Shown: positions 86 to 54,153, counted from the first letter of the stretch. The stretch: 64,000 bases of DNA from Candidatus Aenigmatarchaeota archaeon (GCA_039091335.1 JAWCME010000001.1:1-64000), one strand, 5' to 3'. A program made the numbers and translations. The notes: a model not told the origin generated them from the sequence alone.

Positions 86-185
86 CGCCGAGGGTGGGAT
101 TTGAACCCACACTCCCCAAAGGGGAACCAGCTTTCTTTCCAAAAAACTCAAGGCTGGCGCATTCGCCTGATTCTGCCACCTCGGC
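86..185 (-). tRNA. tRNA-Ser(UGA) with 14-nt intron at 37/38 (intron 133..146)
   Basis: Reverse complement gives acceptor GCCGAGG/CCTCGGC+G73, anticodon stem CCAGC/GCTGG, CT-TGA-G[TTTTTTGGAAAGAA]A, long variable arm TTCCCC-TTT-GGGGAG and T-loop TTCAAAT; no encoded CCA. Confidence 0.93.
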
Positions 186-252
186 TTCTCATCATATTTT
201 TTTCAGACCTTGAGCTAACAATTTCAATATATTAGTTTAAAAACAAAAGGTT

Positions 253-549
253 TTATTTTAAGATTTCTATTTTTCCTGATCTTGGAATGTTTAGCTGTAG
301 CTTTCCTCTAAACTCTGTGACAAATGCTCCGCTTATACTAACATTATCCCCTTCTTTAATTCTATCTATTTGCTCTTGCCACAAGCTTAGTGTAATTTCC
401 CCTGTTTCATCTTCTATGCTTGCATTTGCCACTCTTCTTCTTCCAAACTTTGTCATCACTTCCCTCTCTTCCTCTATGTTTATTACCCTACCTTCAACAG
501 AAACATTGCTCATGCCTCTTTTTATTTCATTTATTTTCATTAAATTCAC
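253..549 (-). CDS. Single OB-fold ssDNA-binding protein (SSB/RPA)
   Basis: VEGRV...DETGEITLSLW...GAFVTEFRGKLQLN OB-fold pattern. Confidence 0.85.
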   Translation of the reverse strand: MNLMKINEIKRGMSNVSVEGRVINIEEEREVMTKFGRRRVANASIEDETGEITLSLWQEQIDRIKEGDNVSISGAFVTEFRGKLQLNIPRSGKIEILK

Positions 550-758
550 AATTTCATTTTGTGTTTAAATTTAGATTTTTTTGCCTTGCTTAAAGGCCAC
601 ACATCTTCTATGAGCATATCAGGAATTTCTTCGTCCAAAACAGGATACGCCAATTTACATCTCTTACAAACTATAAACATTCCCATTTCTTCTAAACTTC
701 CACTACATTTTGGACATGCCAATATCTCGAGCAACTCTTTTGGTATAGTCATTTCCAT
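546..758 (-). CDS. Trm112-like protein
   Basis: LLEILACPKC...C..C..AYPV...IPDML signature. Confidence 0.85.
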   Translation of the reverse strand: MEMTIPKELLEILACPKCSGSLEEMGMFIVCKRCKLAYPVLDEEIPDMLIEDVWPLSKAKKSKFKHKMKL

Positions 759-794
759 CTTCTTTATTATTCTTTATTCTATCAATCTTAAATT

Positions 795-1733
795 TTAAGA
801 GATCTTAGGATATATTCCTTTCTCTAAGAAAACCCTATCAGTTCTTACAGCTGTTCCTTCTTTTTTTTCAAACATCTCCTTACTGCTCATCTTCGCAACT
901 CCTATCGCAACAAGCTCGTTTTTTAAAGAATAGATTGCAACTTTTTCTTCTGGCTTAATGCCATCCTGAATTCTTGTTATTCCAGAAACAAAAAGTGGAG
1001 AACCGGAGACAATGCTATGTATTGCTGAATCTTTCACAAACACTTTTTTCACATGCGGTATTGCAAACTCAATGGGAATCAAAATCTTTCTTATTATTTC
1101 TTCGTTTAAATCTTTTATTGCGTCGTAAACATGAATTAAAGGCACTGCATTTTCCTCAGTAAAATTCCCTACTCTTGTGCGTCTCAACTCTTTAAGGTGA
1201 GCACCAAAACCAAGAGTCATTCCCAAATCTGAACAAATCTTTCTTACATATGTTCCCGCCTCACACCCGATTTTAAACAACACATCCTTGCCGTCAATTT
1301 CTATCAAGTCGAAATAGTAAACTTTCCTTTTTCTTGGTCTTCTCGAGACTGCCGATTTTACCGGCGGCACTTGGACTATCTCTCCAATGAACTTTAAAAC
1401 AGTTCTTTTAAGTAAATTTTCATCCACTTCTTTGTGTAAATGCATCACCCCAACATACTCTTTATCTAAACCCATCAATAGTGGAATTGCTTTTGTAGCA
1501 TTCTCTATAGCTATTGGTAGGACTCCTGTAGCTGCAGGATCTAAAGTACCAGCGTGCCCTGCCTTCTTCACATTAAAAATTTCTTTTACCCAAGCCGTTA
1601 TTTGATGAGAAGTTGGACCAAAGTGTTTATCTATAACTAATATAGAAGTTTTAATCAGTTCTTTTACAGTCCTTTCCTCTGGGGGTTTTCCATAGTTTAC
1701 GTTAGTCTCTTCTTCAGACCTTATTAGCCACAT
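795..1733 (-). CDS. cbf5: H/ACA RNA-guided pseudouridine synthase Cbf5
   Basis: GPTSHQ, KAGHAGTLDP catalytic motif, GTYVR, C-terminal PUA domain; uninterrupted. Confidence 0.96.
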   Translation of the reverse strand: MWLIRSEEETNVNYGKPPEERTVKELIKTSILVIDKHFGPTSHQITAWVKEIFNVKKAGHAGTLDPAATGVLPIAIENATKAIPLLMGLDKEYVGVMHLHKEVDENLLKRTVLKFIGEIVQVPPVKSAVSRRPRKRKVYYFDLIEIDGKDVLFKIGCEAGTYVRKICSDLGMTLGFGAHLKELRRTRVGNFTEENAVPLIHVYDAIKDLNEEIIRKILIPIEFAIPHVKKVFVKDSAIHSIVSGSPLFVSGITRIQDGIKPEEKVAIYSLKNELVAIGVAKMSSKEMFEKKEGTAVRTDRVFLEKGIYPKIS

Positions 1734-1803
1734 GTTTTTTCACATTTAGTAATAGTATAAGGTTAAAACATTAACATTTCTTATTTCTCGCCTCTAACAG
1801 ATT

Positions 1804-9428: not shown

Positions 9429-9439
9429 TTCCACAGTAT

Positions 9440-9784
9440 TTACGGGTTTAAAATCTTAATATTTAGTTCTTCGGCCCTTTTTAAAATTTCTTCTCTCTTC
9501 TTTTTTCCTACTGTGCTGGAAATTTTTACTGCTTCTTTTTCTGGATTAATTTTTTCCAAATCTTTAACATTGCACACCAAAATTTCCCTAAATCCAGAAG
9601 GATGAAGGTATTTCAACCTTTTTGGTGCGCCATACCCTATATTAGGCATTTTTGGTTTTCCCTTCTCCCTTCTTCTTATTTTTGAGTGCATGCCTCTTGC
9701 TTTTCTCCATTTTGCCTTTCTTAACCTCTTATAAGCTTTCCACCCCGACCTTAAAAATTTTGGTTTCTTTTTGGGGTTTACCAT
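9440..9784 (-). CDS. rpl32e: 50S ribosomal protein L32e
   Basis: KPKFLR...WRKARGMHSK...GYGAP...LHPSG. Confidence 0.96.
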   Translation of the reverse strand: MVNPKKKPKFLRSGWKAYKRLRKAKWRKARGMHSKIRRREKGKPKMPNIGYGAPKRLKYLHPSGFREILVCNVKDLEKINPEKEAVKISSTVGKKKREEILKRAEELNIKILNP

Positions 9785-10864: not shown

Positions 10865-10964
10865 TGCGCCGAGCGGGATTTGAACCCGCGTTGCAAGCTT
10901 GGAAGGCATACGCCAAAGTTCGCGTCTTAGACCTTCAGCCTTTCGTAGGCTGGACCATCGGCGC
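10865..10964 (-). tRNA. tRNA-Gly(UCC) with two non-canonical introns (D-loop, 10934..10946; 29/30, 10908..10919)
   Basis: Removing ACGAAAGGCTGAA and ACTTTGGCGTAT yields a 75-nt cloverleaf: acceptor GCGCCGA/TCGGCGC+A, anticodon stem CGAGC/GCTTG, loop CT-TCC-AA, T arm GCGGG-TTCAAAT-CCCGC. Confidence 0.92.
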
Positions 10965-15693: not shown

Positions 15694-16190
15694 CCTATTT
15701 CCATGCTTCTTCTCATCCAGAATGCTTCTTCCTTCCCAATCTTCTTTTCTTCTATTTTTTTCTCTTCCTTCCCTTCTTCTTTTATCTCAATTCTAATGCT
15801 TTTAATTTTTTCTGCTATTCTCTTAAGTTCATCCTCAGTAATTTTAATTGGAGTAGACTCGATTAAAGGAACGTTTTCTTCATATACAGGATATATTCTG
15901 AAATGAAAGTGTGGTATTTCCTCTGAAGTTATTACTGAAATACTTATTGATTTTGGTTCTAGTGCCTGTTTTATCATTTCACTTACTATAAGTACAGACG
16001 AAAAGACTTTTTTTGATAACTCAAAGTTCTCGTCAAAAATTTTGTAATGGGTTTTTGGAATGACTATTGCCATTCCCCTTGAGCGAGGAAAAAGATCTAG
16101 AAATGCCGTTGAATTTTCGTCCTCATATATTATAAATGCGGGAATTTGTTTATTTGCTATTTTACAAAACACACAATCTTTTTGCTCCAT
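15690..16190 (-). CDS. HIT family nucleotide hydrolase
   Basis: DCVFCKI...IIYED...AFLD..P...PHFHFRI; real start is MEQKDC, the longer ORF overlaps rpl3. Confidence 0.85.
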   Translation of the reverse strand: MEQKDCVFCKIANKQIPAFIIYEDENSTAFLDLFPRSRGMAIVIPKTHYKIFDENFELSKKVFSSVLIVSEMIKQALEPKSISISVITSEEIPHFHFRIYPVYEENVPLIESTPIKITEDELKRIAEKIKSIRIEIKEEGKEEKKIEEKKIGKEEAFWMRRSMEIG

Positions 16191-16250
16191 ACTGTTAATT
16201 TTAAATGGATAGAATTTAAGTTTATTTAATTGAATTTGCAGGTGATGGGA

Positions 16251-17219
16251 ATGGTAAAGGAAGGAAATCCACGCAGAGGCTCTCTTCAGTTCTATCCAAG
16301 GAAGAGGGCAAAAAGAATTTATCCAGCCATAAAAACATATCCAAAAAGTGAAAAGGCAAGGATATTGGGTTTTGCTGGTTATAAGGCTGGAATGCTTCAT
16401 GCAATAATAATTGATAATAAAAAGAATTCTCCTACATTTGGACAAGAAATATCTGTACCAATAACTGTTTTGGATTGTCCTCCTCTTAAAGTTTTGGGTA
16501 TTAGGGTTTATGAATCTACAACAAAAGGATTTAGAGCACTAAGCGAAGCATGGACAAAAGAACTACCGAAAGATTTGAGCAGAAAATTAAAAATTAACCC
16601 AAAAGAATATAATCTGGAGAACATTGAAAAAATGATCGAAAAAATTTCTAAGGTTAGGATCATAGTAGCAACTCAGCCAAAATTGTCTGGAATTGGAAAG
16701 AAAAAACCAGAGGTTTTTGAAATAGAAGTTGGTGGAACAAATATCAAGGAAAAAATAGATTTTGCTAAATCATTGCTTGGAAAAGAGATTAGAATAGAAG
16801 ATTTTGTAAAAGATGGAGAACTTGTTGATGTCATCTCGATAACAAAGGGGAAAGGGTATGCTGGACCTGTTAAAAGGTTTGGAATAAAAATTCAGAATAG
16901 GAAGGCACATAAGAAAAGAAGACATGTTGGCACGCTCGGCCCAGAAACACCTTCTAGGGTAAGATGGACCGTACCTATGGCAGGCCAGATGGGATTTATG
17001 AGAAGAACTGAGATAAACAAAAGGGTATTGAAAGTTGGGAAAGGAGAAGAAATAACACCAAAGGGTGGATTTAAAAGATATGGAAAAGTGAAAACAAGCT
17101 ATTTGATAGTTGAAGGTTCTGTACCAGGAGAAAAAAAGAGGCTTGTCTTTATTAGAGCTCCAATAAGACCAGGAAAGATTAAATTTTTACCTACCGAGAT
17201 TAAAAAAATTGTTAGTTAG
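16251..17219 (+). CDS. rpl3: 50S ribosomal protein uL3
   Basis: PRRGSLQFYPRKRA, GYKAGM, TKGKG..GPVKRFG. Confidence 0.97.
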   Translation: MVKEGNPRRGSLQFYPRKRAKRIYPAIKTYPKSEKARILGFAGYKAGMLHAIIIDNKKNSPTFGQEISVPITVLDCPPLKVLGIRVYESTTKGFRALSEAWTKELPKDLSRKLKINPKEYNLENIEKMIEKISKVRIIVATQPKLSGIGKKKPEVFEIEVGGTNIKEKIDFAKSLLGKEIRIEDFVKDGELVDVISITKGKGYAGPVKRFGIKIQNRKAHKKRRHVGTLGPETPSRVRWTVPMAGQMGFMRRTEINKRVLKVGKGEEITPKGGFKRYGKVKTSYLIVEGSVPGEKKRLVFIRAPIRPGKIKFLPTEIKKIVS

Positions 17220-17263
17220 AAATATCTTAAATTTTTATTTATAAAACTTTAAGATATGGTAAT

Positions 17264-18079
17264 ATGAAGGTTAGTGTTCTTGGTTTAGACGGAAAGGCAA
17301 CAGAGGAAATTGAGTTGCCAAGTTTATTTAAAACACAGATTAGAGAAGATCTAATTCTCAGAGCGTTTCTTGCAACCCAAAGCAAAAAAAGACAACCTTA
17401 TGGAGTAGATGTTTTAGCAGGAAAAAGAACATCAGCGCACTATCATGGCATGAGAAGGGAGAGATTTACAATGATGGGAAGAGATATTGCAAGGATGCCA
17501 CGCATACATGGAAAAGGTGTTTCTCCAGCTTTAGCATGGAGGGCAAGATTCGTGCCTCAAGCTGTTAAAGGAAGGGCCGCACATCCGCCAAAAAAAGAAA
17601 AGATATGGGAACAGAAAATAAACAAAAAGGAAAGAAGAAAAGCAATTCAGTCAGCAATAGCAGCGACAGCATCCATAGATTATGTTAAAAAAAAACACAG
17701 GCTTGGAAAAGATATGAAACTGCCTATAGTTGTAGAGGATAAAATTCAAGAAATATCTAAAACAAAAAATCTTGTTGAATTTTTGAAAAACATTGGGCTT
17801 GAGGAAGAAATAAAAAGGGTTGAGAAGAGGAAACTAAGGGCGGGAAAAGGAAAGAGACGGGGAAGAAAATATAAAGAAGGGGTTGGACCACTAATAGTAG
17901 TAGCAGAAGATGAGGGGATAAGTAAGGCTGCAAAAAATTTAATTGGAGTAAATGTATGCAGAGTTGAAAATTTGAGCGTAGAACATCTTGCACCTGGAGG
18001 TGTCCCTGGGAGAATTTCAATATGGTCAAAAAGTGCAATAAATAAGCTTGAAAACTTTTTAAATTCTAAAAATATTTAA
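17264..18079 (+). CDS. rpl4: 50S ribosomal protein uL4
   Basis: PQAVKGRAAHPP, RAGKGKRRGRKY, HLAPGGVPGR. Confidence 0.96.
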   Translation: MKVSVLGLDGKATEEIELPSLFKTQIREDLILRAFLATQSKKRQPYGVDVLAGKRTSAHYHGMRRERFTMMGRDIARMPRIHGKGVSPALAWRARFVPQAVKGRAAHPPKKEKIWEQKINKKERRKAIQSAIAATASIDYVKKKHRLGKDMKLPIVVEDKIQEISKTKNLVEFLKNIGLEEEIKRVEKRKLRAGKGKRRGRKYKEGVGPLIVVAEDEGISKAAKNLIGVNVCRVENLSVEHLAPGGVPGRISIWSKSAINKLENFLNSKNI

Positions 18080-18097
18080 TTAATTCAAATTGATTAA

Positions 18098-18241
18098 ATG
18101 ATTGAATTTGAAAAATTTTCGAAATTTAGGACGAAGGAAGATTATACAACAAGAATAAATGTTTTTAATAAAAAAACTGAAAGTTTGAAAAAAACTTCTG
18201 AAGTCCTGAAGGAAATTTGCATTTTATTGAATAAAGAATAA
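18098..18241 (+). CDS. Possible small protein (47 aa), not in ORF track
   Basis: ATG..TAA ORF MIEFEKFSKFRTKED...LLNKE between rpl4 and rpl23. Confidence 0.25.
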   Translation: MIEFEKFSKFRTKEDYTTRINVFNKKTESLKKTSEVLKEICILLNKE

Positions 18242-18267
18242 ATTTATTATTTCATTTAATTTTGATT

Positions 18268-18528
18268 ATGGATCCATATAGTGTTTTGAAATATCCGCAT
18301 TTGACAGAAAAATCTGTTGCACTGCTTGAAAAGGAGAATAAAATAGTTTTTATAGTAGACAGGAAAGCAAACAAAAAAGAAATAAAGGAAGCCTTTGAAA
18401 AAATTTTTGAAGTTAAGGTAAAAGAAGTTAATACTTTAATAACTTCTACAGGAGAGAAGAAGGCATTCATAAAACTTGACCCGAAGTTCAAAGCAACAGA
18501 AGTAGCAACAAGACTTGGAATTGTTTAG
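18268..18528 (+). CDS. rpl23: 50S ribosomal protein uL23
   Basis: YPHLTEK...FIVDRKANKKEIK...VNTL...KKAFIKL. Confidence 0.96.
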   Translation: MDPYSVLKYPHLTEKSVALLEKENKIVFIVDRKANKKEIKEAFEKIFEVKVKEVNTLITSTGEKKAFIKLDPKFKATEVATRLGIV

Positions 18529-18580
18529 TTTATTAGCTTAGAAAAAAATTTAAATATTAAATTGGGTTTAAGTGAATAGC

Positions 18581-19282
18581 ATGGGAAAAAGAATTATTGT
18601 AAGAGCAAGAGGCAGGGGTGGTCCAAGATATAGGGCACCAAGCCATAGATATTTGGGTAGAGTTGAATATTTGCCTGTGGGGATAAGCGGAAAAGTAAAA
18701 GATATAGTTCATGATCCTGGAAGAACGGCGCCTGTAGCTATAATTAAACTTGAAAACGGAAGGGAGGTTTTACATATTGCCCCAGAAGGACTAAAAGCTG
18801 GTGATATAGTATCTTATGATGGGGATGTTTCTGTTGGAAATGTTTTGCCCTTGGAAAAAATTCCTGAAGGAACAAAGATATGCTGCATTGAAACCTATCC
18901 TGGTTCAGGACCAAAAATTTGTAGAAGTTCTGGGAGTTTTGGGATAGTTTCTGGAAGGGTTGGAAACAACATAACAGTAACATTAAGTTCCGGAAAAACA
19001 AAAATTTTAAACCCAAAATGCAGGGCCATGATAGGTATTCCGGCCGGAGGTGGAAGAACAGAAAAACCATTTGTAAAAGCAGGTAAGAGATTCTATGCGC
19101 TATCTGCAAGAGGAAAGTTATATCCAAGGGTAAAGGGTGTTGTAATGGCTCCTGTGGATCATCCGTATGGTGGAAGAAGCAAAAGGCCAAAACCATCAAA
19201 AACTGTTAGTAGGTTTGCACCACCAGGAGCCAAGGTTGGTTCTATCTCTGCTAGGAGAACAGGAAAAAGAAGGGGAGGATAA
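18581..19282 (+). CDS. rpl2: 50S ribosomal protein uL2
   Basis: MGKRI..RARGRGG, HDPGR, VDHPYGG, APPGAKVG. Confidence 0.97.
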   Translation: MGKRIIVRARGRGGPRYRAPSHRYLGRVEYLPVGISGKVKDIVHDPGRTAPVAIIKLENGREVLHIAPEGLKAGDIVSYDGDVSVGNVLPLEKIPEGTKICCIETYPGSGPKICRSSGSFGIVSGRVGNNITVTLSSGKTKILNPKCRAMIGIPAGGGRTEKPFVKAGKRFYALSARGKLYPRVKGVVMAPVDHPYGGRSKRPKPSKTVSRFAPPGAKVGSISARRTGKRRGG

Positions 19283-19683
19283 TGGTAAAAGAGTTTTTTT
19301 TCAGAGGATATTCGCTGGAAGAATTGAAAAAAATGAGCATAGAGCATTTTTCTAAACTATTACCTGCAAAATATAGAAGGAGTTTAAAGCGCGGTCTTAC
19401 TGAACAACAGAAAAAACTTTTGGAAAACATAAGAAAAAACCCGGAAAAATTCCACAAAACACATGTAAGAGACATGATAATTTTACCCGAGATGGTTGGA
19501 GCAAAAATAGGGGTTTATTTGGGAGGAAAGAAGGGAGAAACTTCAAGATGGTTTCCTCTAACTATAACACCGGAGATGATAGGTCGTAGGTTGGGTGAAT
19601 TTGTCCCGACAACAAAAAAAGTTAAACACAGTGCCCCGGGGATTGGAGCAACAAGAGGGTCTAAGTTCTTTGCAACTAAGTAA
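19282..19683 (+). CDS. rps19: 30S ribosomal protein uS19
   Basis: KTHVRDMIILPEMVG, PEMIG..LGEF, GIGATRGS. Confidence 0.96.
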   Translation: MVKEFFFRGYSLEELKKMSIEHFSKLLPAKYRRSLKRGLTEQQKKLLENIRKNPEKFHKTHVRDMIILPEMVGAKIGVYLGGKKGETSRWFPLTITPEMIGRRLGEFVPTTKKVKHSAPGIGATRGSKFFATK

Positions 19684-19735
19684 TTTTAAATTTTTCTATA
19701 TTGAAAATTTTAAAAAGAAATTAAGTGATGTTGGA

Positions 19736-20095
19736 ATGAAAAAAAGCATTTCGAAAATAAGGGACGCAAGAGTTTCACTTAAGAAATGTATTGTGATATG
19801 CAAAGAATTAAAAGGCAAAAAAATCAGTAAAGCAAAAGATTTTTTGGAAAAATTGATTAAAAAAGAAATAAGCTTAAACGGAAAATACTATACAAACCCA
19901 GCTAAAAAAATACTTGAGCTTTTAAAGAACGCTGAAGCCGATGCAAAGTTTAAGGGATTGGAATTAGAAAGAACTTTTATTAAAAATATAAAGGCCGATA
20001 AAGGGTTTACGTTCATAAGACCAAGATCAAGGTTTAGGTTAAGGGGGAGAAGAATAAAGGCAACCCATTTAACTGTTGAGTTAGAGGAAAGATAA
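19736..20095 (+). CDS. rpl22: 50S ribosomal protein uL22
   Basis: ARVSLKK...LLKNAEADA..KGL...THLTVEL; operon position. Confidence 0.92.
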   Translation: MKKSISKIRDARVSLKKCIVICKELKGKKISKAKDFLEKLIKKEISLNGKYYTNPAKKILELLKNAEADAKFKGLELERTFIKNIKADKGFTFIRPRSRFRLRGRRIKATHLTVELEER

Positions 20096-20700
20096 TGATA
20101 GAGAAAATATTTGTAAGGGAGGAAATAAGAAAATGTGAGGTAGAGGAATTTCTTGCTAAAAAATTTGAAAAAGCAGGATATAGTCATACTGAAATAACAC
20201 GTACTCCGCTTGGGATGAGAATAATAGTTTATGCTTATAAGCCTGGTCTTGTTGTTGGAAAATCTGGAAAACGGGTAAAAGAGATAACTGAAGAAATAAG
20301 AGAAAGGTTTGGGTTTGAAAACCCAATGCTTGACGTAAGGGAAGTAGAAGAACCTTTTCTTGATGCTAACATTGTTGCAAAAAGAGTTGCAAGGGCATTA
20401 GAAAGAGGGATAAATTTTAAAAAGGTTGCAAACTACTATGTTGAAAAAGTAATGGAGGCAGGAGCAATAGGAGTGCAAATAAAAATTGGTGGAAAGCTTA
20501 TGGGGGCAGAAAGGTCAAGGTTTCAAAAATTTCAGAAAGGTTTTATAGCACACTCTGGAGATTATGCAGACGTTTTTGTAGAAAAGGGATATGCACAGGC
20601 GTCAATAAAACCCGGAATCATTGGAGTTAAAGTTAAAATAATGAAAAGGGCCCCAAAAGAGCTTGTACTGGAGAAAATTAAGGAGGAAGAAAATATTTAA
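20095..20700 (+). CDS. rps3: 30S ribosomal protein uS3
   Basis: AGYS...TPLG...KPGLVVGKSG...PGIIGVKVKI. Confidence 0.96.
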   Translation: MIEKIFVREEIRKCEVEEFLAKKFEKAGYSHTEITRTPLGMRIIVYAYKPGLVVGKSGKRVKEITEEIRERFGFENPMLDVREVEEPFLDANIVAKRVARALERGINFKKVANYYVEKVMEAGAIGVQIKIGGKLMGAERSRFQKFQKGFIAHSGDYADVFVEKGYAQASIKPGIIGVKVKIMKRAPKELVLEKIKEEENI

Positions 20701-20775
20701 ATATAAAATGAAAATTTAAAAAAGGAGAAGAAATGTATATCTTCCTGAAAAATGTTGCTTCTTGTGAGGATTTAA

Positions 20776-20991
20776 ATGGCCATAATTAGAATGAAAGAGA
20801 TAAGAGAGATGAAGGAAGAAGAATTAAATAAAAGGCTTTCTGAATTAAGGTTAGAACTTATGAAAGAAATGGGAAATGTAAAGATGGGTAGACCAATTAA
20901 AAATCCTGGAAAGATTAGGGAGTTGAAGAGAGCCATTGCTAGAATTTTAACTTTAAAGAGGGAAAGAAGTAAAAATGCAAGAAATATGTAA
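20776..20991 (+). CDS. rpl29: 50S ribosomal protein uL29
   Basis: [17 protein letters not shown]. Confidence 0.95.
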
Positions 20992-21274
20992 GGTTTGTGG
21001 ATATCCGATTGAATTTTGTGTATGTAGAACAATAGAGAGGGAAGCACAAAAAATAAAAATTTCTGTAGAAGCAAGGAAGTTTGGAAAAAACATAACGGTT
21101 GTTGAGGGAATAACAGAAAATGCAAAGGAAATTGTGTCACAATTAAAACAGATGCTTGCTTGCGGTGGAACTTATAAAAATAACAAAATAGAACTGCAGG
21201 GGGACCATAGAAATAAGATTAAAGAAATATTGATGAAACTGGGATATGGAGAGAATCAAATAGAGGTAATTTAA
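20975..21274 (+). CDS. Translation initiation factor aIF1 (SUI1)
   Basis: [25 protein letters not shown]. Confidence 0.95.
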
Positions 21275-21293
21275 CCATAAAAAAATTATTAGT

Positions 21294-29984: not shown

Positions 29985-31088
29985 CTACCTTGTTATTTGT
30001 TGTGCTCGAACGAACTCCAAAAGCTCTTTTGCTTCTCTGTTTTTTTCAAAATATCTTCTCACAGGATCAAGTATTTTTATTATCTCTTCTGCAACAGTGT
30101 TTTTTAAATCCAGTGGGTGTAGCTCACCGGCCCTAAAAGATTTCTCCAGTTCTTCATAGGAGTGAAATTCTATTGTTCCTATTCTTCTTTCAATCTCAAT
30201 TGTTTTTTTCTTTCTAAATATTATATATTTACAAATCTCAAGAATTGGGTTGTTTTTTATTTCTTTTTCAGGGCAAAATGCTCCAAGGATTTTTTTTCTG
30301 ATTTCTTCTGGAGTATCATGGATGAAAATACATGTTTTTGGTATGGATTTAGCCATTTTACTAGATATCTGTATATCCAAACTTATGTTTTCTTCAAATT
30401 TTCCCATTCTTGTTGGTCCCTGCAACCCGATTAGAAGATGATGATGAACGCATACTGGACTCCACCACCCAAGCTTCGGTCCAAGCTCATGAGAAAGTAT
30501 TGTTGCCTTTCTTTGGTCCATCCCAAGTTGACAAATGTCAACTTCTAAATAGAATGGGTCTGCTGCTTGCATTGCTGGATAGAAAAGTTGGGCAGTATAT
30601 TGCATTTCTGCCTCCCTTCTTCCCATTATTGTGGAGCATCTTATCATTCTTTCTATTGTTGTTGCTTTAGCTATAGAGATAACCTTTTTCCAATATTCTG
30701 GATCTTTTACAACATCGCTCGTCCAAACAATCTCGGCTTTTTTTAAGTCCGCTCCACACGCCTTCCAAGCTTCTATAAGATATTTTCCTGTATTTTTTAT
30801 CTTTTCCAAGTCCCCTCCCATCTTGTTGTTTATCCAGGCGAACCAGTCTGCAACAAGAAACTTGAATCTTATTCCTGCATCTAGCAAGTCTTGAAGCTTA
30901 ATGGCTCTAAGTAATCCTGAACCCAAATGAGCAATTGTGGCTGATTTAATTCAGTTTCCACTTGGCTCAAAACCATCATATGCAACTGGGCATGGATTTG
31001 TTTGCAAAAGTTCTCTTAGACCTTCTTCTGTAATTATTTCTTCTGTAGGTGGAAGTTTTATTAAATCTATTTTAGTTTCTATATCCAT
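29985..31088 (-). CDS. tyrS: Tyrosyl-tRNA synthetase, two exons (31088..30956 and 30934..29985) joined after removal of a 21-nt BHB intron
   Basis: Exon 1 MDIETKIDLIK...AYDGFEPSG is in frame with exon 2 IAHLGSG...ADWFAWIN...YPAMQAAD...LGMDQRK...KMAKS; the seven intervening codons include TGA; spliced product is 360 aa. Confidence 0.92.
30935..30955 (-). other. Putative BHB mRNA intron in tyrS (ACTGAATTAAATCAGCCACAA)
   Basis: GTGG-AA|A-CTGA-attaaa-TCAG-CCAC-AA|T: 4-bp central helix, two 3-nt bulges and a 4-bp intron stem; cutting after the second bulge nucleotide restores FEPSGIAHLG. Confidence 0.88.
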
Positions 31089-34012: not shown

Positions 34013-34050
34013 TTAAATCTAAATTAAACAGAAAAATAATTAATTAAAGA

Positions 34051-35223
34051 ATGATTGTAAGAGATTTGAAAATTAGGGAGATATTCGCAACTAACTCCCA
34101 GAGAACAATCGAAATAGAAATAGAAACACCAAAAGGTACAGTCAGGAGTTCTGTACCGATAGGAACGAGTAGGGGTATTCATGAAGTCGTTTTTCTAAGT
34201 GTTGAGGATGTGATAAGAAAGTTTCTACTTATAAAAAAACATTTTATTTCAGATTTTATTGACCAAGAAGATGTTGATTCTACATTGAGGATAATAGACA
34301 AAACACCAAACTTTAAGGAAATAGGAGGAAATTTAGCTATAGCCATATCTTCTGCTTTTCTTAAAGCCTTTGCATTAGACGAGGGTAAAGATGTTTTTGA
34401 ATTCCTGCTCAAAGGAGAGGTAAAGATACCAAAACCGATTTGCAATGTTGTTGGAGGATGGGCAGGAACAGGAGCTAGTGACATACAGGAATATTTGCTT
34501 TTACCGGTACATCAAACCTCATTCCTTGAGAATATTAAAAAGATTTCTGATTGTTACATAAAAATAGGAAAAGAATTGAAAGAAAAAGACAGAACATTTG
34601 TTTTTGCAAAAAATTTAGAATCTGCGTGGGTAACTTCTCTGTCCGTAGAAAAAACTCTTGATATAATCCACAAAATTGCAAACGAAAACCTATTAAGAAT
34701 TGGGTTAGACGTTGCGGCGTCTCAGCTTTGGGACGGAAGTTTTTATGTTTATTCGGGTTCAGGAAAAAAATACAATAGAACTGAACAAATATCTTTTTTA
34801 GAGGATTTGGTGAATAGGTATAAAATACTCTATATAGAAGATCCATTTCATGAAGAAGATCTTATAGGCTTTAGCACACTTACACATAGACTTAGCCCAA
34901 GAATAGTTTGCGGGGATGATATATACGCTACAAACCTAAAAAGACTTAAAATTGGAATAGAACACAAAGCAACAAATGCAATAATAATTAAACCAAACCA
35001 GGTTGGAACAATAAGTGACGTGATTAATGTTGTGAAGGAAGCTAAGAAGAATAAAATACTAACCGTTGTCTCACATAGATCAGGGGAGACAGAGGACACT
35101 CTTATATGTCATTTGGCCGTTGGTCTTGGTTGCGACTATATAAAACTTGGGATAAGTGGAGAAAGAACAGTAAAAATAAACGAGATGATAAGGATAGAAG
35201 AAAAAATAACAAAAGAATCATAG
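34051..35223 (+). CDS. eno: Enolase (divergent)
   Basis: IGGN, GLDVAAS, IEDPF, GDD, IKPNQVG, SHRSGETED. Confidence 0.9.
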   Translation: MIVRDLKIREIFATNSQRTIEIEIETPKGTVRSSVPIGTSRGIHEVVFLSVEDVIRKFLLIKKHFISDFIDQEDVDSTLRIIDKTPNFKEIGGNLAIAISSAFLKAFALDEGKDVFEFLLKGEVKIPKPICNVVGGWAGTGASDIQEYLLLPVHQTSFLENIKKISDCYIKIGKELKEKDRTFVFAKNLESAWVTSLSVEKTLDIIHKIANENLLRIGLDVAASQLWDGSFYVYSGSGKKYNRTEQISFLEDLVNRYKILYIEDPFHEEDLIGFSTLTHRLSPRIVCGDDIYATNLKRLKIGIEHKATNAIIIKPNQVGTISDVINVVKEAKKNKILTVVSHRSGETEDTLICHLAVGLGCDYIKLGISGERTVKINEMIRIEEKITKES

Positions 35224-35251
35224 CTAATTATTTACAAAATAAAATTATTTT

Positions 35252-37903
35252 GTGAAAAAGGACTGGCATACAAGAAGAATAAATGAATTATTCCAATACC
35301 TATATACTTCTGAAGAGGGGTTGAGCGAAAAAGAAGCTAAAGAAAGATTGAAAAAATTTGGTACAAACGAAATAATAAGGAAGAAAAGGTTTTCCTCAAT
35401 TTTAATTTTTTTTAGGCAGTTTAAAAGCTTTCTTGTATTTTTGTTGATAGCTGCGGCAACAATATCTTTTTTGTTGGGAAAAAAAGATGATGGTATAATT
35501 ATCTCTGCTGTAATTTTCATCAACACAGTAATAGGGTTTTTACAAGAATATAAGGCAGAAAAAACAATGGAAGCAATTAAAAATTTGACAGTACAAAAAA
35601 CTAGGGTAATAAGAGAAGGAAAGGAAAAAATTATTCCGTCAAAGTTTCTTGTTCCTGGAGATATTATAGTGGTGGAAGAGGGAAACAAAATTCCGGCAGA
35701 TTCGAGAATTATTGAAAGTATAAATTTAATGGTAGACGAATCGGCATTAACAGGAGAATCTATACCTGTTGAGAAGGAAGCAAAGATTTTGGATGACATT
35801 CCTTTACAAGAAAGGAAGAATATGCTGTTTCTTGGGACAATGGTCGTATACGGGAGAGGAAAGGCCGTTGTTGTGGACACAGGAATGCAGACAGAGCTTG
35901 GAAGAATTGCGGGAATGATAGAGACAGAGGAAAAACAAACCCCATTGCAAGCTAGGATTGAAGAATTGGGGAAATGGCTTGTTTTTATAGCAGTCTTTTT
36001 TTCTTCGCTTATATTTTTATTTGGAGTGATTGCGAAGAAAGAGCTTTATCAACTTTTTTTCACAGCAATTGCACTATCCGTTTCTGCCGTCCCAGAAGGA
36101 TTGCCTGCCGTGGTGACAATTACATTAGCATTGGGTGTTAATAGAATGAGCAAAAAAAATGCAATAATAAGGAAGATTTCAGCAGTAGAAACTCTAGGGT
36201 GCACTACAGTAATAGCTACTGATAAAACAGGAACAATAACAAGCAATGAAATGACTGTAAGAAAGATTTTTGTTAAAAATAAAACTGTAGAGGTTAGTGG
36301 GATTGGTTTTGAACCTTATGGAGATTTTTATGTTGAAGGTAAAAAGATAAATCCAAGAGAAGATTCTTCATTAAACTTAATTTTAGAAGCTTGTGTACTT
36401 TGTAATAGTGCATCAATATTAAGAAATGGAAATTGGCTGTTTCTTGGAGACCCAATGGATAGGGCGCTTCTCGTTTTATCTGCAAAGGCTGGTATATGGA
36501 AGAATGAACTTGAAAAAAAATACGAAAAGGTTGTAGAAATACCTTTTTCCTCTGAAAGAAAGTTGATGGTCGTTGTTTATTCAAAAAAAGATGAGAGTTT
36601 TATATACGTAAAAGGTGTTCCAGAAAAAATTCTAGAAATTTGTAGTTTTGTTCATGAAGAGGGCAAAATGACACCAAAAAGAAGAAAAGAGTTGGATGAA
36701 GAGATAAGAAAAATGGCTAGGGACGGATTAAGAGTAATAGGAATTGCATATAAAAAGGTTAGTGGAAAAGTTTTTTCTACAAAAGAAGTGGATATAAAAG
36801 ATTTGGCTTTTCTTGGGTTTTTAGGAATGCAAGACCCTCCTAGAGAAAACATAAGAGAGGCCATTGAAAAATGTAACCAGGCTGGAATAAGAGTTATTAT
36901 GCTAACAGGAGACCACAAGGAGACAGCATCCAAAATAGCAAAAGAGGTTGGAATATTAGAAAGTGAAAAAATAGTCACAGGAAATGAACTTGATAAAATG
37001 AGTGAAGAGGAAATTAAAGATGTAGTCGGGAAAGTAAATGTATATGCAAGGGTTTTGCCGGAACATAAGCTAAAAATAGTTAGGTCCTTGAGGGAAAGAG
37101 GAGAAATTGTGGCTGTTACTGGTGATGGTGTGAACGATGCTCCTGCTTTAAAAGAGGCTGATCTTGGTATAGCAATGGGAATTAGGGGAACTGATGTAGC
37201 AAAAGAGGCAAGCGATATAATATTAACAGATGACAACTTTATAACCATTGTTTCTGCAGTTGAAGAAGGAAGAAAAATTTATGATAATATAAGAAAATCC
37301 TTAAGATATGCTTTATCTGTAAACTTTAGTGAAATATTTTTGATATTAACATCCATATTGGTTGGTCTTCCATTACCATTACTTCCAATTCAAATACTTT
37401 GGCTAAACCTTATAACAGACACTCTTCCTGCCCTGTCTTTGTCTGTAGAAAAGGGAGATGAGTATATATTAAAAAGAAAACCAAGAAACCCAAAGGAATC
37501 TATTTTTCATGGAATGACTGTTTTTATGATTGCTGCTGGCTCACTTTGCTTTCTAGTTGAATTTTTTGTTTTTGTTTTTCAATTATACAGGTCTGTTTCG
37601 TTTACATATACAGAAATAGCAAAGGCAAGAACGATGTGCCTTAGCGTTGCTGTGATGTTTGAACTATTCTTTGTTTTCAACTGCAGGTTAGAAAGGGGTT
37701 CTATCTTTAAAACAAACCCATTTTCAAACAAATATTTATTGGTCTCAGTCATAATTTCATTTTTATTGCACTTATCAATAATCTATTTCCCACCCTTCAG
37801 TCATTTTCTTAATACAGTTCCATTGGGATTGAATGAATTTGTTTTGATTGTTTTGCTATCATCTTTATCGCTTATTCTTTCTCCTTCTGTTTTCTTGTAT
37901 TAA
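35252..37903 (+). CDS. P-type ATPase, type IIA (Ca2+-transporting-like)
   Basis: LTGES, VPEGLP, DKTGT, KGVPE, TGDGVNDAPAL, WLNLITD. Confidence 0.94.
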   Translation: MKKDWHTRRINELFQYLYTSEEGLSEKEAKERLKKFGTNEIIRKKRFSSILIFFRQFKSFLVFLLIAAATISFLLGKKDDGIIISAVIFINTVIGFLQEYKAEKTMEAIKNLTVQKTRVIREGKEKIIPSKFLVPGDIIVVEEGNKIPADSRIIESINLMVDESALTGESIPVEKEAKILDDIPLQERKNMLFLGTMVVYGRGKAVVVDTGMQTELGRIAGMIETEEKQTPLQARIEELGKWLVFIAVFFSSLIFLFGVIAKKELYQLFFTAIALSVSAVPEGLPAVVTITLALGVNRMSKKNAIIRKISAVETLGCTTVIATDKTGTITSNEMTVRKIFVKNKTVEVSGIGFEPYGDFYVEGKKINPREDSSLNLILEACVLCNSASILRNGNWLFLGDPMDRALLVLSAKAGIWKNELEKKYEKVVEIPFSSERKLMVVVYSKKDESFIYVKGVPEKILEICSFVHEEGKMTPKRRKELDEEIRKMARDGLRVIGIAYKKVSGKVFSTKEVDIKDLAFLGFLGMQDPPRENIREAIEKCNQAGIRVIMLTGDHKETASKIAKEVGILESEKIVTGNELDKMSEEEIKDVVGKVNVYARVLPEHKLKIVRSLRERGEIVAVTGDGVNDAPALKEADLGIAMGIRGTDVAKEASDIILTDDNFITIVSAVEEGRKIYDNIRKSLRYALSVNFSEIFLILTSILVGLPLPLLPIQILWLNLITDTLPALSLSVEKGDEYILKRKPRNPKESIFHGMTVFMIAAGSLCFLVEFFVFVFQLYRSVSFTYTEIAKARTMCLSVAVMFELFFVFNCRLERGSIFKTNPFSNKYLLVSVIISFLLHLSIIYFPPFSHFLNTVPLGLNEFVLIVLLSSLSLILSPSVFLY

Positions 37904-39885: not shown

Positions 39886-40917
39886 ATGATACTGATTGAC
39901 GGGAAGGAAGCGGGGGGACAAGTTTTAAGAACTGCTGTTGGACTTTCTGCTATAACAAACAAGCCAATTAAAGTAATTAACATTCGTGGGGCAAGGGGTG
40001 ATGGTGGACTCAAAACCCAACATTTAGAAGGAATATTGGCAGTTGGTAATTTGTGCAATGCTAAAATAAAAGGGGCTGTTTTGGGATCAAAAGAGTTGGA
40101 GTTTATTCCTGGACGCATAGAGCCAAAACAATTAAATATAAAAATTTCTACCGCAGGTTCTATTGGGCTTCTTTTTCAATCGTTACAAACTATTTCTGGT
40201 TTTTGCGGTGAAGATATAAAAATAAATGTGTATGGTGGATCAACATCATCTGCATGGAGTCCCACACTACATTATATTCAAAACGTATTCCTTCCAATTG
40301 CAAACAAAATGGGGTTTTCTGCTGAAATAAAAATAATAAAAGAGGGGTTTTATCCAAAGGGTGGGGCAGAAGTAAAAATGATTATTCATCCCATTAAAAA
40401 GTTAACTCCAATAAAATTGACTGAAAGAGGGAAGATTAAAAATATAAGAGGAATTTCAATAGTCGGTTCTTTACCAAAACATGTTGCTGAAAGACAAAAT
40501 GAGTATGCAATAAAGGTTTTAAAGGAACACGGTTTTGATAATATAAATATATCGTATCAATTAGTTAGTACACTCTCTCCAGGAACTTCTATTACAATTT
40601 GGGCTGAATGTGAAAATTCCATAATTGGAGCAGACAACATAGGAAGAAGGGGGGTAAGGGCCGAGAAAATAGGGGAAGAATGTGCAAAAGAATTAATTGC
40701 ATCCTTAGAATCAAAAGCTGCTTTAGACAAATATATGGCAGACCAGATTTTGGTATTTTTATCTCTAGCAGACGGAGAGTCTGAAATAAGGGTTGAAGAA
40801 ATAACAGAGCATGTTAGAACAAACATTAAAGTAATTGAGCAAATTGTTGGAGTAAGATTTTATGTTGATGAAGATGAAAAAACAATTAGGGTCATAGGAA
40901 TAGGTTTGATGGGATAA
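39886..40917 (+). CDS. rtcA: RNA 3'-terminal phosphate cyclase
   Basis: GGQVLRTA, GLKTQHL, TAGS, GFYPKGG, ADQ, TEHVRTN. Confidence 0.94.
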   Translation: MILIDGKEAGGQVLRTAVGLSAITNKPIKVINIRGARGDGGLKTQHLEGILAVGNLCNAKIKGAVLGSKELEFIPGRIEPKQLNIKISTAGSIGLLFQSLQTISGFCGEDIKINVYGGSTSSAWSPTLHYIQNVFLPIANKMGFSAEIKIIKEGFYPKGGAEVKMIIHPIKKLTPIKLTERGKIKNIRGISIVGSLPKHVAERQNEYAIKVLKEHGFDNINISYQLVSTLSPGTSITIWAECENSIIGADNIGRRGVRAEKIGEECAKELIASLESKAALDKYMADQILVFLSLADGESEIRVEEITEHVRTNIKVIEQIVGVRFYVDEDEKTIRVIGIGLMG

Positions 40918-41422: not shown

Positions 41423-41980
41423 GTGATGAAAATGAAGAAAGAGCTGCTAGTGGTAATGCTAGCCAGCATACTCTCATCAATTGGAGCAGGAATATTTGGT
41501 CCTGTTTACTTATTATACTATCAAAAGATTGGGGGGTATTCGGAAATTTCAATGGCTTTCGGGATATTTTGGATTGCTTTGGCCTTGATGGAAATACCTT
41601 TTGGCTATCTTTCTGACAGATTTGATAGAAAAATTTTCATAATTATTGGTGGTATTTTAACTTCTTTTGTATCTTTGTTTTACATTTTTATTAAAACGGT
41701 ATTTGAGCTCTACCTTTTAGAATTTTTAAGCGGAGTAGCTACGTCTATACAAAAACCTTCACTTCAATCCCTAATCTCAGAAATGGCTTCAAAAAAAGAA
41801 AGAGGGAAAATTTTTGGTTTATTCAGTTCTACTGTGAACCTTTCTTATGGCGTTGCTTCTCTGCTTTCTGGAATTCTAATAGGAATTTTTGGAATTAGCT
41901 CAATTTTTATTGTTTCTTCGCTTTTCCAACTCACTTCTACACTCATCGCTTTTAAAATTAGAAAATATGCTTTTGAATAG
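41423..41980 (+). CDS. Half-size (6-TM) MFS-like transporter
   Basis: MFS motif A GYLSDRFDRK and ERGKIFG; 185 aa only. Confidence 0.75.
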   Translation: MMKMKKELLVVMLASILSSIGAGIFGPVYLLYYQKIGGYSEISMAFGIFWIALALMEIPFGYLSDRFDRKIFIIIGGILTSFVSLFYIFIKTVFELYLLEFLSGVATSIQKPSLQSLISEMASKKERGKIFGLFSSTVNLSYGVASLLSGILIGIFGISSIFIVSSLFQLTSTLIAFKIRKYAFE

Positions 41981-51774: not shown

Positions 51775-52501
51775 TACAACTCTATTTACAGATTCTATAT
51801 CAACGATATCAGAACTTATAGATGAGGGTGTTTTTAAAATCTCAAAGGATGGAATAAGTTTTATTGCAGCGGACAGAGCAATGGTGGCTGTTGTTGATTT
51901 TAAATTTTTGGCAACAGCGTTTGAGGAGTTTGAGGTAGACCAAGAATATATGATTGGGCTAAACATTCCAAATCTTCTTTCTGTTCTGAGAAGAGCTGGG
52001 GCAGGAGATAAAATAAGCTTAAACTTGAAAGAAGGTAAACTAGAAATAATAATCGAAGGTAAATCAAAAAGAAGGTTTTTAATTCCTTTATTAGATATAA
52101 CACAGGAGGAAATACCACAAATAGATCAACTTGAGTTTTCCTCTAAAGCTGAAGTTTCTTCTGAAATTATAAAAAATGGGATAGAAGACGCTGAGATAGT
52201 GTCTGACTGCGTTTTAATTGAGGGGTCTCCTTCGAAATTTGGTATGAAGGCCGAGGGAGATATAAGCTCTTCGCAACTAGAACTGGAGAAAGGAAGTAAT
52301 GAATTAATTGAATTAAAATGCAGTACTGAAACAAAAGCAAGATATCCAATAGACTATTTGAAAAAAATGATAAAGGGTACAAAACTCGCTGATTCTGTTG
52401 TTATAGAGTGGGGAGAGGATTATCCTATGAAAATGACTTTTAAAGTAATAGACAAGCTTGTTTTATCTATTGTCCTAGCACCAAGGGTTATAGAGGAGTA
52501 A
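51752..52501 (+). CDS. pcn: DNA sliding clamp PCNA
   Basis: LIDEG.F, AADRAMVA, YPIDYL, DYPMKM, LAPRV. Confidence 0.96.
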   Translation: MFRATLSDTTLFTDSISTISELIDEGVFKISKDGISFIAADRAMVAVVDFKFLATAFEEFEVDQEYMIGLNIPNLLSVLRRAGAGDKISLNLKEGKLEIIIEGKSKRRFLIPLLDITQEEIPQIDQLEFSSKAEVSSEIIKNGIEDAEIVSDCVLIEGSPSKFGMKAEGDISSSQLELEKGSNELIELKCSTETKARYPIDYLKKMIKGTKLADSVVIEWGEDYPMKMTFKVIDKLVLSIVLAPRVIEE

Positions 52502-53276
52502 TTTTTTTAAACAAGCTTAAAATATTACTTAAAAAGGAAGTTCTAGACCCTATACCAGTAAGCTTAGACGCTATTTTCATAAAACTTATAGAAGCTTTTG
52601 AATAAGGTTTGTATAAAATTATTGGAATTCCTTGCGCTGCACTATCCATTAAATTTTCGTCAAAGGGAATTGTTCCAAGAACAGGAACTCCAAAAAAATC
52701 TTCTGCAACCTCTTTTCTAAGCTCAAATTTTTTATTTCTTACCATGTTTAAAATTATGTGAAATTTTTTTTGTCCGAGTTGTGACGCAAACTCAGCACAT
52801 CTTGTCATATCATAAACATTTGGTATTGTTGGAGTAGTAACAAAAATTATTTCCTCAGAGGCTTTTAAAACAGAAATTGCGTCTTTGCCCAACCCGGGGG
52901 CAGAATCAAGAAGAATGAAATCGTATTCTTCAATCTGAGATAGTCTTTCTATATATTTTTTCAACCCATTAATCTCAACCTTTATCACATCTTTTAACTC
53001 TTTTGAGCATGGAATAAACATTACTCCATTTTGATATATTGGAGCAAACCTTATGTCAACTTCATTTCTTAAAACGTCGTTTAATGTTATAGAATAGTTT
53101 TTAACTCCAAGATAGTATGCAAGATGGGGTGAAGTTATATTGCAGTCAATGATAATAACTTTTTTATTTAATTTTGACAGTGCTATGCCTAAGTTTGACG
53201 CCACCGTTGTTTTACCAACACCACCCTTTCCTGAAACAATCCCAATAATTCTTGTCAATTTCCCACTGTTTGTCAA
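52488..53276 (-). CDS. MinD/ParA family ATPase
   Basis: SGKGGVGKTT, DSAPG, IPFD. Confidence 0.9.
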   Translation of the reverse strand: MTNSGKLTRIIGIVSGKGGVGKTTVASNLGIALSKLNKKVIIIDCNITSPHLAYYLGVKNYSITLNDVLRNEVDIRFAPIYQNGVMFIPCSKELKDVIKVEINGLKKYIERLSQIEEYDFILLDSAPGLGKDAISVLKASEEIIFVTTPTIPNVYDMTRCAEFASQLGQKKFHIILNMVRNKKFELRKEVAEDFFGVPVLGTIPFDENLMDSAAQGIPIILYKPYSKASISFMKIASKLTGIGSRTSFLSNILSLFKKITPL

Positions 53277-53501
53277 TTAACTAACTATAGTTAAAATAGA
53301 TAAAAATTAAAATTTAAGTTTTATTTAATTCTTTTTTGAGCTAACTTATACCACTTCGTTTTTCAGACAAGAGAAACTACAGAATAATAACAGGACTCGT
53401 TGGTGATAACAGATCCTTTTAACTTGTTTTTAAAGGATGAAAGTATATATTCTGGATACTGAGTGTACAATAGCAGCTATTACCTACAGGTTCTTTTTCA
53501 C

Positions 53502-53903
53502 CTATTTATATCTTTGTTTTAGAATGAAAATATACTTCATAGGCATAAAGGCCTCTAAGTCGCTTTGATAGGAACATTTTGTGCACTTATATCCAATAAT
53601 TATATCCTTCTTCATCAAATTCTTAACCTTTATCTCTTCTATGGAAGAATCACAAATTGGGCATTTTTCTATTTTTTGTAACTTTATTGTTTTTTTTGTT
53701 TTTGCCTTAACTTCAACTTCCGGTAAAAGTAAAGCGATTCTCTTTACCCTAATTGGAGAAAGTATGTATTCCTTGTTTTCTTTCTTAAGCCTTCTTAAAA
53801 CGAGATTACACAGCTCTTCCTGCGTATCAACTCTTATTCTACTTCTAATAACGTTTTTTATTTCTTCAGCAACCCTACTAGCTGGCGGAATTTTACTTTC
53901 CAT
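53502..53903 (-). CDS. Hypothetical protein with C-terminal Zn ribbon
   Basis: CPIC...YKCTKCSY...PMKYIF. Confidence 0.72.
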   Translation of the reverse strand: MESKIPPASRVAEEIKNVIRSRIRVDTQEELCNLVLRRLKKENKEYILSPIRVKRIALLLPEVEVKAKTKKTIKLQKIEKCPICDSSIEEIKVKNLMKKDIIIGYKCTKCSYQSDLEAFMPMKYIFILKQRYK

Positions 53904-54041
53904 CTCAATAAGAATTTATAAAAGTAGGATTTAAGTTTAACATAACAGTTATATTTTACAATTACATATACTTTAAAAAATGAAGAAAGGATGTTAATAG
54001 AAATTAAATTTTATAACTTTCAAAATAATACTATCTTACAT

Positions 54042-54153
54042 GCCGAGGTGGCAGAATCAGGTAATGCGCAGCCCTGGAGTTTTTAGAAAGGCTGTGTCCC
54101 TCTGGGACGTCTGGGTTCAAATCCCAGCCTATGGTAATACCAGCTGAACGGCG
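54042..54153 (+). tRNA. tRNA-Ser(GGA) with 9-nt intron at 37/38 (54080..54088) and 18-nt BHB intron at 68/69 (54131..54148)
   Basis: GCCGAGG pairs with CCT[ATGGTAATACCAGCTGAA]CGGC+G; anticodon stem CAGCC/GGCTG; CT-GGA-G[TTTTTAGAA]A; variable arm GTCCC-TCT-GGGAC; TTTTATAA box at 54009-54016. Confidence 0.92.

Follow-up and report, generated by a model that had tools for sequence, protein, structure and literature searches.

An intron in the cbf5 pre-mRNA of Crenarchaeota was reportedly described by Watanabe in 2002 and by Yoshinari in 2006. The same intron is treated by Yokobori 2009 (PMC2738675), and in the available portions of two further papers (PMC7714728, PMC10485636) the cbf5 gene of Crenarchaeota is the sole coding sequence of an archaeon reported to have an intron of the bulge-helix-bulge (BHB) type; the second of these states, in its available text, that more such introns likely await discovery (PMC10485636). 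Another mRNA case, as given in the available text of PMC7714728, is HVO_1309 of Haloferax volcanii, whose 46-nucleotide (nt) BHB intron lies in the 5' untranslated region and leaves the reading frame uninterrupted. The subject of this work is a DNA window of 64,000 nt, positions 1-64000 of contig C1 of an archaeal genome designated G000 (569,737 bp in 29 contigs, an 87% complete assembly with approximately 33% G+C), in which the tyrosyl-tRNA synthetase (TyrRS) gene tyrS and three tRNA genes contain inserts of 9-21 nt. It is highly likely that most tRNA genes and at least four protein genes of this genome are interrupted by BHB introns of 9-25 nt which are spliced from the RNA.

Like the cbf5 intron, as the available parts of the papers cited above present it, the tyrS insert would be a short, relaxed BHB element within a coding sequence, presumably removed by cutting with the splicing endonuclease EndA followed by ligation, and its distribution is patchy, which implies gain and loss. 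Unlike cbf5, the host genes are tyrS, aIF5A, SMC and Sec61beta (and rtcB in a relative), the lineage is a DPANN one, and several genes are affected per genome. The EndA of the family also appears to be a single unit of approximately 190 amino acids (aa), whereas cbf5 splicing is linked, in the portions of the papers at hand, to a heterotetramer. By analogy, the tyrS intron would resemble the cbf5 intron in its working without being a member of the cbf5 intron family.

The tRNA introns of Thermoproteales, Thaumarchaeota, ARMAN/DPANN and Asgard are described in the available text of PMC5829648 and PMC11291895 as multiple, located outside position 37/38, and relaxed or bulge-helix-loop in form. 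Those of G000 share these properties but are very short (9-18 nt). As with the intron of HVO_1309, so far as the accessible description of the latter goes, an mRNA is the (here predicted) substrate of an archaeal splicing endonuclease; unlike that leader intron, the introns in question break up codons of functional motifs. The DNA of highly conserved motifs is also where homing inteins and endonuclease-bearing archaeal rRNA introns insert. Unlike these, the mini-introns encode nothing, would be taken out of the RNA, and bring in a stop or a frameshift. No BHB introns in tyrS, aIF5A, SMC, Sec61beta, rtcB or DPANN protein genes were found reported in the literature outside subscription journals and supplementary files. 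The tyrS intron thus adds a new case from a lineage not previously represented, in a genome that has several of them.

The tyrS insert

The tyrS gene and its predicted parts are as follows.

29985..31088, minus strand: tyrS gene, with one in-frame TGA at 30953..30951
30956..31088, minus strand: exon 1, running from the start codon through ...GFEPSG into the first base of the following codon; relatives' TyrRS align to it with their N-termini
30935..30955, minus strand: predicted intron of 21 nt containing the in-frame TGA; central helix GTGG/CCAC, inner hairpin CTGA/TCAG
29985..30934, minus strand: exon 2, from the rest of the ATP-binding motif to the stop; matches positions 23-291 of the Pfam tRNA-synt_1b profile

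Translation of the interrupted gene reads ...GFEPSGN, then a stop, then IKSATIAHLGSG..., at a point where uninterrupted relatives have GFEPSG followed by two residues and H[LI]. Excision of 30955..30935 yields GFEPSG-IA-HLGSG, as in intron-less relatives. It was also the top-scoring restoration of the alignment to the TyrRS of G007, the closest relative used for comparison, which is a nearly whole genome with a TyrRS 70% identical to that of G000. Elsewhere the frame is unbroken, and over 367 residues it is 55-70% identical to relatives. A single TyrRS gene was identified in the assembly; the other match to PF00579 (tRNA-synt_1b), on contig C12, is a distant, weakly matching paralog.

The predicted 5' splice site lies in the bulge AA^A and the 3' site at AA^T (the caret marks the site), and a 5-bp outer helix between the two exons stands behind an internal loop of 3x4 nt. 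The minimum-free-energy fold of the 56-nt region is BHB-like, comprising the outer helix, a loop with the 3' site, the helix GUGG/CCAC, an AAA bulge with the 5' site and a 4-bp hairpin. Judged from the sequence, the tyrS insert is most probably a BHB intron spliced at the RNA level.

Orthologs of the tyrS insert

TyrRS genes were surveyed in 61 genomes of the same family and order (G000 and 60 relatives), all of which gave a TyrRS match. An insert at the same tyrS codon was identified in four genomes representing three genera: G000 and G034, with 21 nt each, and G020 and G015, with 20 nt each, a length which would shift the frame. The ATP-binding motif was uninterrupted in 21 of the 25 loci in which it was located. 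The four inserts share the inner hairpin and are clearly homologous, and removal at the BHB sites gives GFEPSG-[I/M]A-HL in every case. No further clear insert was present in the whole family (70 genomes, 66 with a TyrRS match), where the contig of G080 ends 32 nt from the site, and none of 80 TyrRS loci in a wider collection was interrupted there (67 standard, 9 in-frame variants and 4 without a located motif).

The central helix reads GUGG/CCAC, GCGG/CCGC, GUGG/CCAU and GCGG/CCGU across the four genomes; one pair differs in both partners (C-G for U-A) and another has G-U in place of G-C. In the four-sequence alignment 98% of cells are paired, versus 23-46% with the partners displaced by 1-3 columns. 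The structure thus appears to be kept in orthologs with compensating changes, at the low statistical weight which four sequences carry.

These orthologs bear on a second explanation, namely that the ribosome copes with the insert by read-through or recoding of the TGA, or skips the 21 nt by translational bypass ("hopping"). In G000 and G034 the insert keeps the frame and starts directly behind a GGA codon, with a stop and a hairpin coming next, an arrangement superficially like known bypass sites. Read-through would, however, place seven extra residues inside the ATP-binding motif, and it is impossible in G020 and G015 since their 20-nt inserts are out of frame. In none of the four sequences is the landing point preceded by a match to the GGA take-off codon. 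Other genes of the window end at TGA as an ordinary stop (table 11), and this geometry is found in untranslated RNAs too, the tRNAs. A ribosomal solution is therefore highly improbable, and RNA splicing is the preferred reading of the tyrS insert.

The four genes with the intron do not group together in a TyrRS tree of 32 rows, and the nearest neighbours of G000, namely G007 and G018, are without the intron. Parsimony requires four changes on this tree, at least three of which (gains or losses) are demanded by well-supported branches. The tree interleaves the families f1, f4 and f5, an example being G054 (f5) as sister to G020 (f1). This interleaving suggests that tyrS has been exchanged among these archaea; such exchange could also move the intron.

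The DNA runs which contain the region are labelled hot springs metagenome. Four runs were compared over 16000-35999, three of DNA and one labelled metatranscriptomic which is probably DNA. The contigs of the best DNA run (X1) end at 30905 and restart at 30954, beside the tyrS intron, where population variation is possible. This break, and the derivation of the genome from a bin of 29 contigs, would fit an origin of the inserts as assembly or sequencing artefacts. That origin is scarcely credible: homologous inserts are present in independently assembled relatives, three DNA runs contain 47-96% of the region's sampled words, and six inserts in one window, the removal of each of which restores a tRNA or a frame, are unlike assembly errors.

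Interrupted tRNA genes

Five further inserts were located in the three tRNA genes of the window.

86..185, minus strand: tRNA-Ser(UGA) gene, 100 nt with the intron and 86 nt mature; Rfam tRNA match of 50.3 bits
133..146, minus strand: tRNA-Ser(UGA) intron at 37/38, 14 nt; relaxed BHB with 3/4 pairs in the central helix and the anticodon stem as outer helix
10865..10964, minus strand: tRNA-Gly(UCC) gene, 100 nt with two introns and 75 nt mature
10934..10946, minus strand: tRNA-Gly(UCC) D-loop intron just 5' of G18-G19, 13 nt; helix CAGC/GCTG, ends in AA
10908..10919, minus strand: tRNA-Gly(UCC) anticodon-stem intron at 29/30, 12 nt; helix ACGC/GCGT, ends in AT
54042..54153, plus strand: tRNA-Ser(GGA) gene, 112 nt with two introns; Rfam tRNA match of 33 bits, 3' end misaligned
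54080..54088, plus strand: tRNA-Ser(GGA) intron at 37/38, 9 nt; bulge-helix-loop form
54131..54148, plus strand: tRNA-Ser(GGA) intron at 68/69 (3' acceptor strand), 18 nt; helix CAGC/GCTG, inner hairpin, ends in AA

Rfam recovered two of the window tRNAs, at 185..86 (minus strand) and 54042..54136 (the true 3' end of tRNA-Ser(GGA) being 54153), and tRNA-Gly(UCC) as its T-arm alone (10890..10873). With default settings ARAGORN reported 0 tRNAs in the window, and in its no-intron mode nothing in the three unspliced loci. Removal of one of two introns produced nothing valid, the one call being malformed with a four-base anticodon, and once all introns were removed the cloverleaves of Ser(tga), Gly(tcc) and Ser(gga) came out clean. 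The syntenic tRNA-Gly(UCC) of G007 is intron-less and over 75 nt has 92% identity with the splicing product predicted for G000. In alignment with the G000 locus it shows two gaps, exactly 13 and 12 nt long, where the introns were predicted. The tRNA inserts of the window are almost certainly BHB introns.

The shortest of them, the 9-nt intron of tRNA-Ser(GGA), has the helix CTGG/TTAG with 2 G-U pairs, a 5-nt loop and an AA^A bulge adjoining the anticodon stem; its minimum-free-energy fold is the bulge-helix-loop form. Among the 25 Rfam tRNA matches above the gathering score in the G000 genome, 22 are longer than 78 nt and 13 are at least 90 nt long, so interrupted tRNA genes are the rule in this genome.

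Two tRNA-Ser genes of G007 (L096:635-779 and L099:1720-1585) have introns of approximately 59 nt at 37/38, compared with 14 and 9 nt in G000, and these longer introns contain C/D-box-like motifs (ATGATGA ... CTGA). The difference in length suggests intron shrinkage or the loss of an intron-borne guide RNA.

A common geometry

One template fits all six inserts of the window. A 4-nt exon strand is paired with a 4-nt intron strand; the 5' bulge comprises two exon nt and one intron nt, the 3' site two intron nt and one exon nt, and the inner part of the intron lies between. The central helix has 4/4 pairs in five inserts and 3/4 in tRNA-Ser(UGA), and several have a weak outer or inner helix, giving relaxed BHB forms. 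In all six, with relaxed forms (HBh', bulge-helix-loop) accepted, the predicted splice sites lie in bulges of two plus one nt on either side of the central helix. The first-pass annotation, made from the window sequence alone, had placed six inserts here (14 nt; 13 and 12 nt; 9 and 18 nt; 21 nt). Each was located where it had been placed and fits this geometry, and the end signatures which had been noted also hold, five of the six inserts ending in AA and the four introns outside 37/38 starting with A.

Chance levels were estimated from about 3.0 million random pairs of position and length (9-40) in the G000 genome. Of these, 1.65% gave a 4/4 helix with no more than one G-U pair, and 0.032% also had an inner helix of at least 4 bp, as in tyrS, making such matches rare by chance. 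An Rfam scan of the window returned no match to an intron family. Group I and group II self-splicing introns were ruled out on size, the inserts being 9-21 nt versus the hundreds of nucleotides of a catalytic core.

Other interrupted protein genes

The genome was scanned blindly for BHB motifs which fuse two open frames, with reversed sequence for comparison. There were 71,744 raw matches versus 42,271 on the reversed sequence, and filtered scans still left 219 and 1,049 candidates, mostly gene junctions and AT-rich chance helices. Since the blind scan was too noisy, the open reading frames of G007 of at least 70 aa were compared with the G000 genome by tblastn (1,796 queries, 864 with matches), a comparison which is blind to shared introns and to genes without a G007 ortholog and which misses very short first exons. 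Three additional protein genes with inserts were identified.

C1:83461-83484: aIF5A intron, 24 nt with an in-frame TGA; inside the lysine codon of ...STSGK^HGAAK...
C23:5224-5200, minus strand: intron of an SMC-like ATPase gene, 25 nt, frame-shifting; inside the Walker-A lysine codon, GPNGVGK^S
C25:27102-27117: Sec61beta intron, 16 nt; Pfam assignment made on the G007 ortholog

All three inserts follow the same BHB template; each has 4/4 pairs in the helix and 3-5 bp in an inner hairpin. The remaining split genes of G000 were attributed to runs of N (C9, C15, C2, C25:279xx and C28) or to gene junctions. G015 and G066 carry the aIF5A intron at the same codon too, 28 and 29 nt long respectively, and its hairpin sequences differ. 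Stops in the aIF5A genes of G001 and G032 lie elsewhere in the gene, and the hypusine site is intact in both. In G080 the contigs bearing aIF5A and tyrS end at or near the intron sites.

The reverse comparison revealed an insert in the rtcB gene of G007, the gene for the RNA ligase. It is a 29-nt BHB insert with an 8-bp hairpin at 9467..9439 (minus strand) of L063, on contig C1 of that genome, inside the conserved ...HFGYG^FPIGG...; rtcB of G000 is uninterrupted at that site. Because the interrupted gene encodes the ligase, its mRNA would need the ligase in order to mature. The family total is at least five occupied intron sites in protein genes.

The first-pass annotation had predicted that further housekeeping genes would prove to be interrupted, and that tyrS would not stand as the one protein gene with a BHB-bounded interruption. 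The inserts in aIF5A, the SMC-like ATPase and Sec61beta of G000, and in rtcB of G007, bear this out. Its companion prediction, of in-frame introns without stops, found no counterpart among the 86 in-frame insertion gaps relative to G007: a strong BHB was present in the stop-containing tyrS and aIF5A alone, and the 149 weak BHB-like matches in these gaps are at chance level. The G007 comparison therefore detects no hidden introns lacking a stop. On comparative evidence the core of the first-pass view, that tiny BHB introns have spread into the mRNAs of this lineage, holds, and that view as a whole is partly supported.

Several other gene interruptions were seen in the two genomes. The G007 ortholog (L056:8766-10004) of the G000 gene at C12:45615-46853 has a single in-frame stop and no insertion, and is not an intron case. 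Four genes of G007 (L066/C26, L065/C25, L043/C24 and L048/C29) have in-frame inserts of 336-529 aa which are absent from G000 and have an intein-like look, and the G000 gene at C26:19503-21977 has a 1,335-nt insert absent from G007.

Splicing machinery

RtcB, which the first-pass annotation had named as a gene to look for, was located in G000 at C25:37091-37729 (E 4.6e-85), where it is cut by the contig end. Archease was found at C23:23634-24044. The window itself contains one RNA-end-processing gene.

39886..40917, plus strand: RtcA (RNA 3'-terminal phosphate cyclase), with the Pfam domains RTC and RTC_insert

RtcA may be linked to the introns.

EndA was present in all 40 relatives searched. 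In the same family a PF01974 match was obtained for each of 24 genomes, in open frames of approximately 190-236 aa; G012 has two matches, on separate contigs. The EndA proteins of two relatives, analysed in Pfam, have one N-terminal and one catalytic domain each, and larger two-domain EndA proteins were seen in other families of the order only. From these sequences the family EndA would be a single unit of approximately 190 aa with the layout of the alpha4 type. An alpha2beta2 or epsilon2 enzyme had been expected at first pass, and the same-family relatives do not agree with that expectation. Loop-bearing alpha4 enzymes are described, in the available text of PMC5829648, in DPANN genomes with many disrupted tRNAs, a description which fits this family.

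A weak EndA match upstream of rtcB in G000 (E 0.39) was rejected as merely fragmentary LAGLIDADG-like frames. Positions of about 540-1300 of this locus (L001, G000:C25:35591-37747), upstream of rtcB, contain short broken frames, some of which resemble LAGLIDADG remnants by eye.

Evidence for and against splicing

Several points weigh against splicing of the inserts. EndA was not found in the 87% complete G000 assembly, whether by PF01974 at a threshold as loose as E<=10 or by tblastn from the EndA of relatives (four open reading frames as queries, one of which, L038, was in the wrong frame). Single-unit EndA is classically linked to strict BHB substrates, and the motifs here are relaxed, the outer helix being weak or missing and tRNA-Ser(UGA) having 3/4 pairs. 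The z-score of the tyrS fold versus shuffles is merely -1.1, and the tyrS covariation comes from four sequences, 98 of 500 shuffles reaching the observed score. No RNA run is among those listed for window positions 26000-35999, and no joint skipping the 21 nt of tyrS was present in the contigs of the four runs over 16000-35999, contigs which say nothing on expression.

The low z-score and the absence of RNA support for tyrS splicing are also what would be seen if tyrS were a decaying pseudogene or carried a neutral TGA-bearing insertion, with its BHB-like fold coincidental and the tRNA inserts alone real introns. DPANN genomes are reduced and host-dependent, which would favour such decay. It is nevertheless very unlikely. 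The gene is the sole TyrRS gene and its remaining frame is intact; homologous inserts of 20-21 nt occupy one site in four genomes of three genera, with helices kept by compensating changes; and three other essential genes of G000 show the same geometry. Splicing is again preferred, and these seemingly broken genes are very probably mended at the RNA level, as far as comparative sequence can tell.

Proposed mechanism

The 4-nt strand of each intron would pair with four exon bases located two positions upstream of the 5' splice site, and the intron would add a small hairpin or loop and usually AA before the 3' splice site. EndA would then cut in both bulges, and RtcB with Archease would join the exons; this cutting and joining of the introns themselves we infer. 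In tyrS, splicing would take the TGA-bearing 21 nt out of the ATP-binding motif to give ...GFEPSG-IA-HLGSG....

Insertion sites and homing elements

The mini-introns of the protein genes lie at invariant motifs: the TyrRS ATP-binding motif, the codons of the aIF5A hypusine lysine and of the SMC Walker-A lysine and, in G007, a conserved Gly motif of RtcB. The SMC site is shared with another type of element. In seven of the 70 family genomes an SMC N-terminal piece lies 1.5-1.7 kb upstream of the remainder of the gene, and in six of these both pieces are in one open frame of 1262-1395 aa. The insert of G006 (L222) contains an intein splicing domain and a LAGLIDADG endonuclease (Pfam) between the same Lys and Ser. 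The 25-nt SMC intron of G000 is located one base from the Gly-Lys^Ser intein site; the related loci of relatives are L222 (G006) and L223 (G015).

It is possible, though rather unlikely, that the mini-introns are remnants of a homing cycle or immunity alleles against homing elements. Endonuclease-bearing BHB introns, inteins and free-standing homing endonuclease genes would target the DNA of invariant motifs. An insert of 9-29 nt would destroy the endonuclease site in the DNA and be erased in the RNA, and would therefore be kept; the retained inserts would tie the expression of core genes to EndA and RtcB. Such an origin is compatible with the SMC intein site, with the tRNA-Ser introns of approximately 59 nt in G007 versus 14 and 9 nt in G000, and with the repeated gain or loss of the tyrS intron.

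Gene content of the window

The genes of the window are archaeal, including ribosomal protein clusters, SecY, cbf5, PCNA, GINS and a methanogen-type SerRS (Pfam). Among named records, the nearest TyrRS genes come from metagenome bins labelled Candidatus Aenigmatarchaeota (DPANN). The cbf5 gene, at 795-1733 on the minus strand, is a single uninterrupted frame of 312 aa with all four Pfam domains. An MFS transporter gene at 41423-41980 (plus strand) is of half size (185 aa, covering profile positions 1-169 of 347). It was considered as a split gene and rejected, the second half being absent downstream.

Significance

In the literature text available, cbf5 stood alone for over twenty years, against four such genes in this one genome of 0.57 Mb and at least five occupied sites in its family. 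The affected genes of the family all serve core functions, namely aminoacylation, translation, chromosome maintenance, secretion and RNA ligation. If the introns are spliced as proposed, gene callers, and the completeness and metabolic inferences built on them, would misjudge essential DPANN genes as broken. Relaxed introns of 9-25 nt together with a single-unit EndA would be natural minimal substrates which define the needs of the enzyme, and their placement in motif codons, once at an intein site, would make the origin and spread of the introns testable. Splicing of mRNAs by the tRNA machinery would then be no curiosity in archaea but a recurrent trait of a whole lineage.

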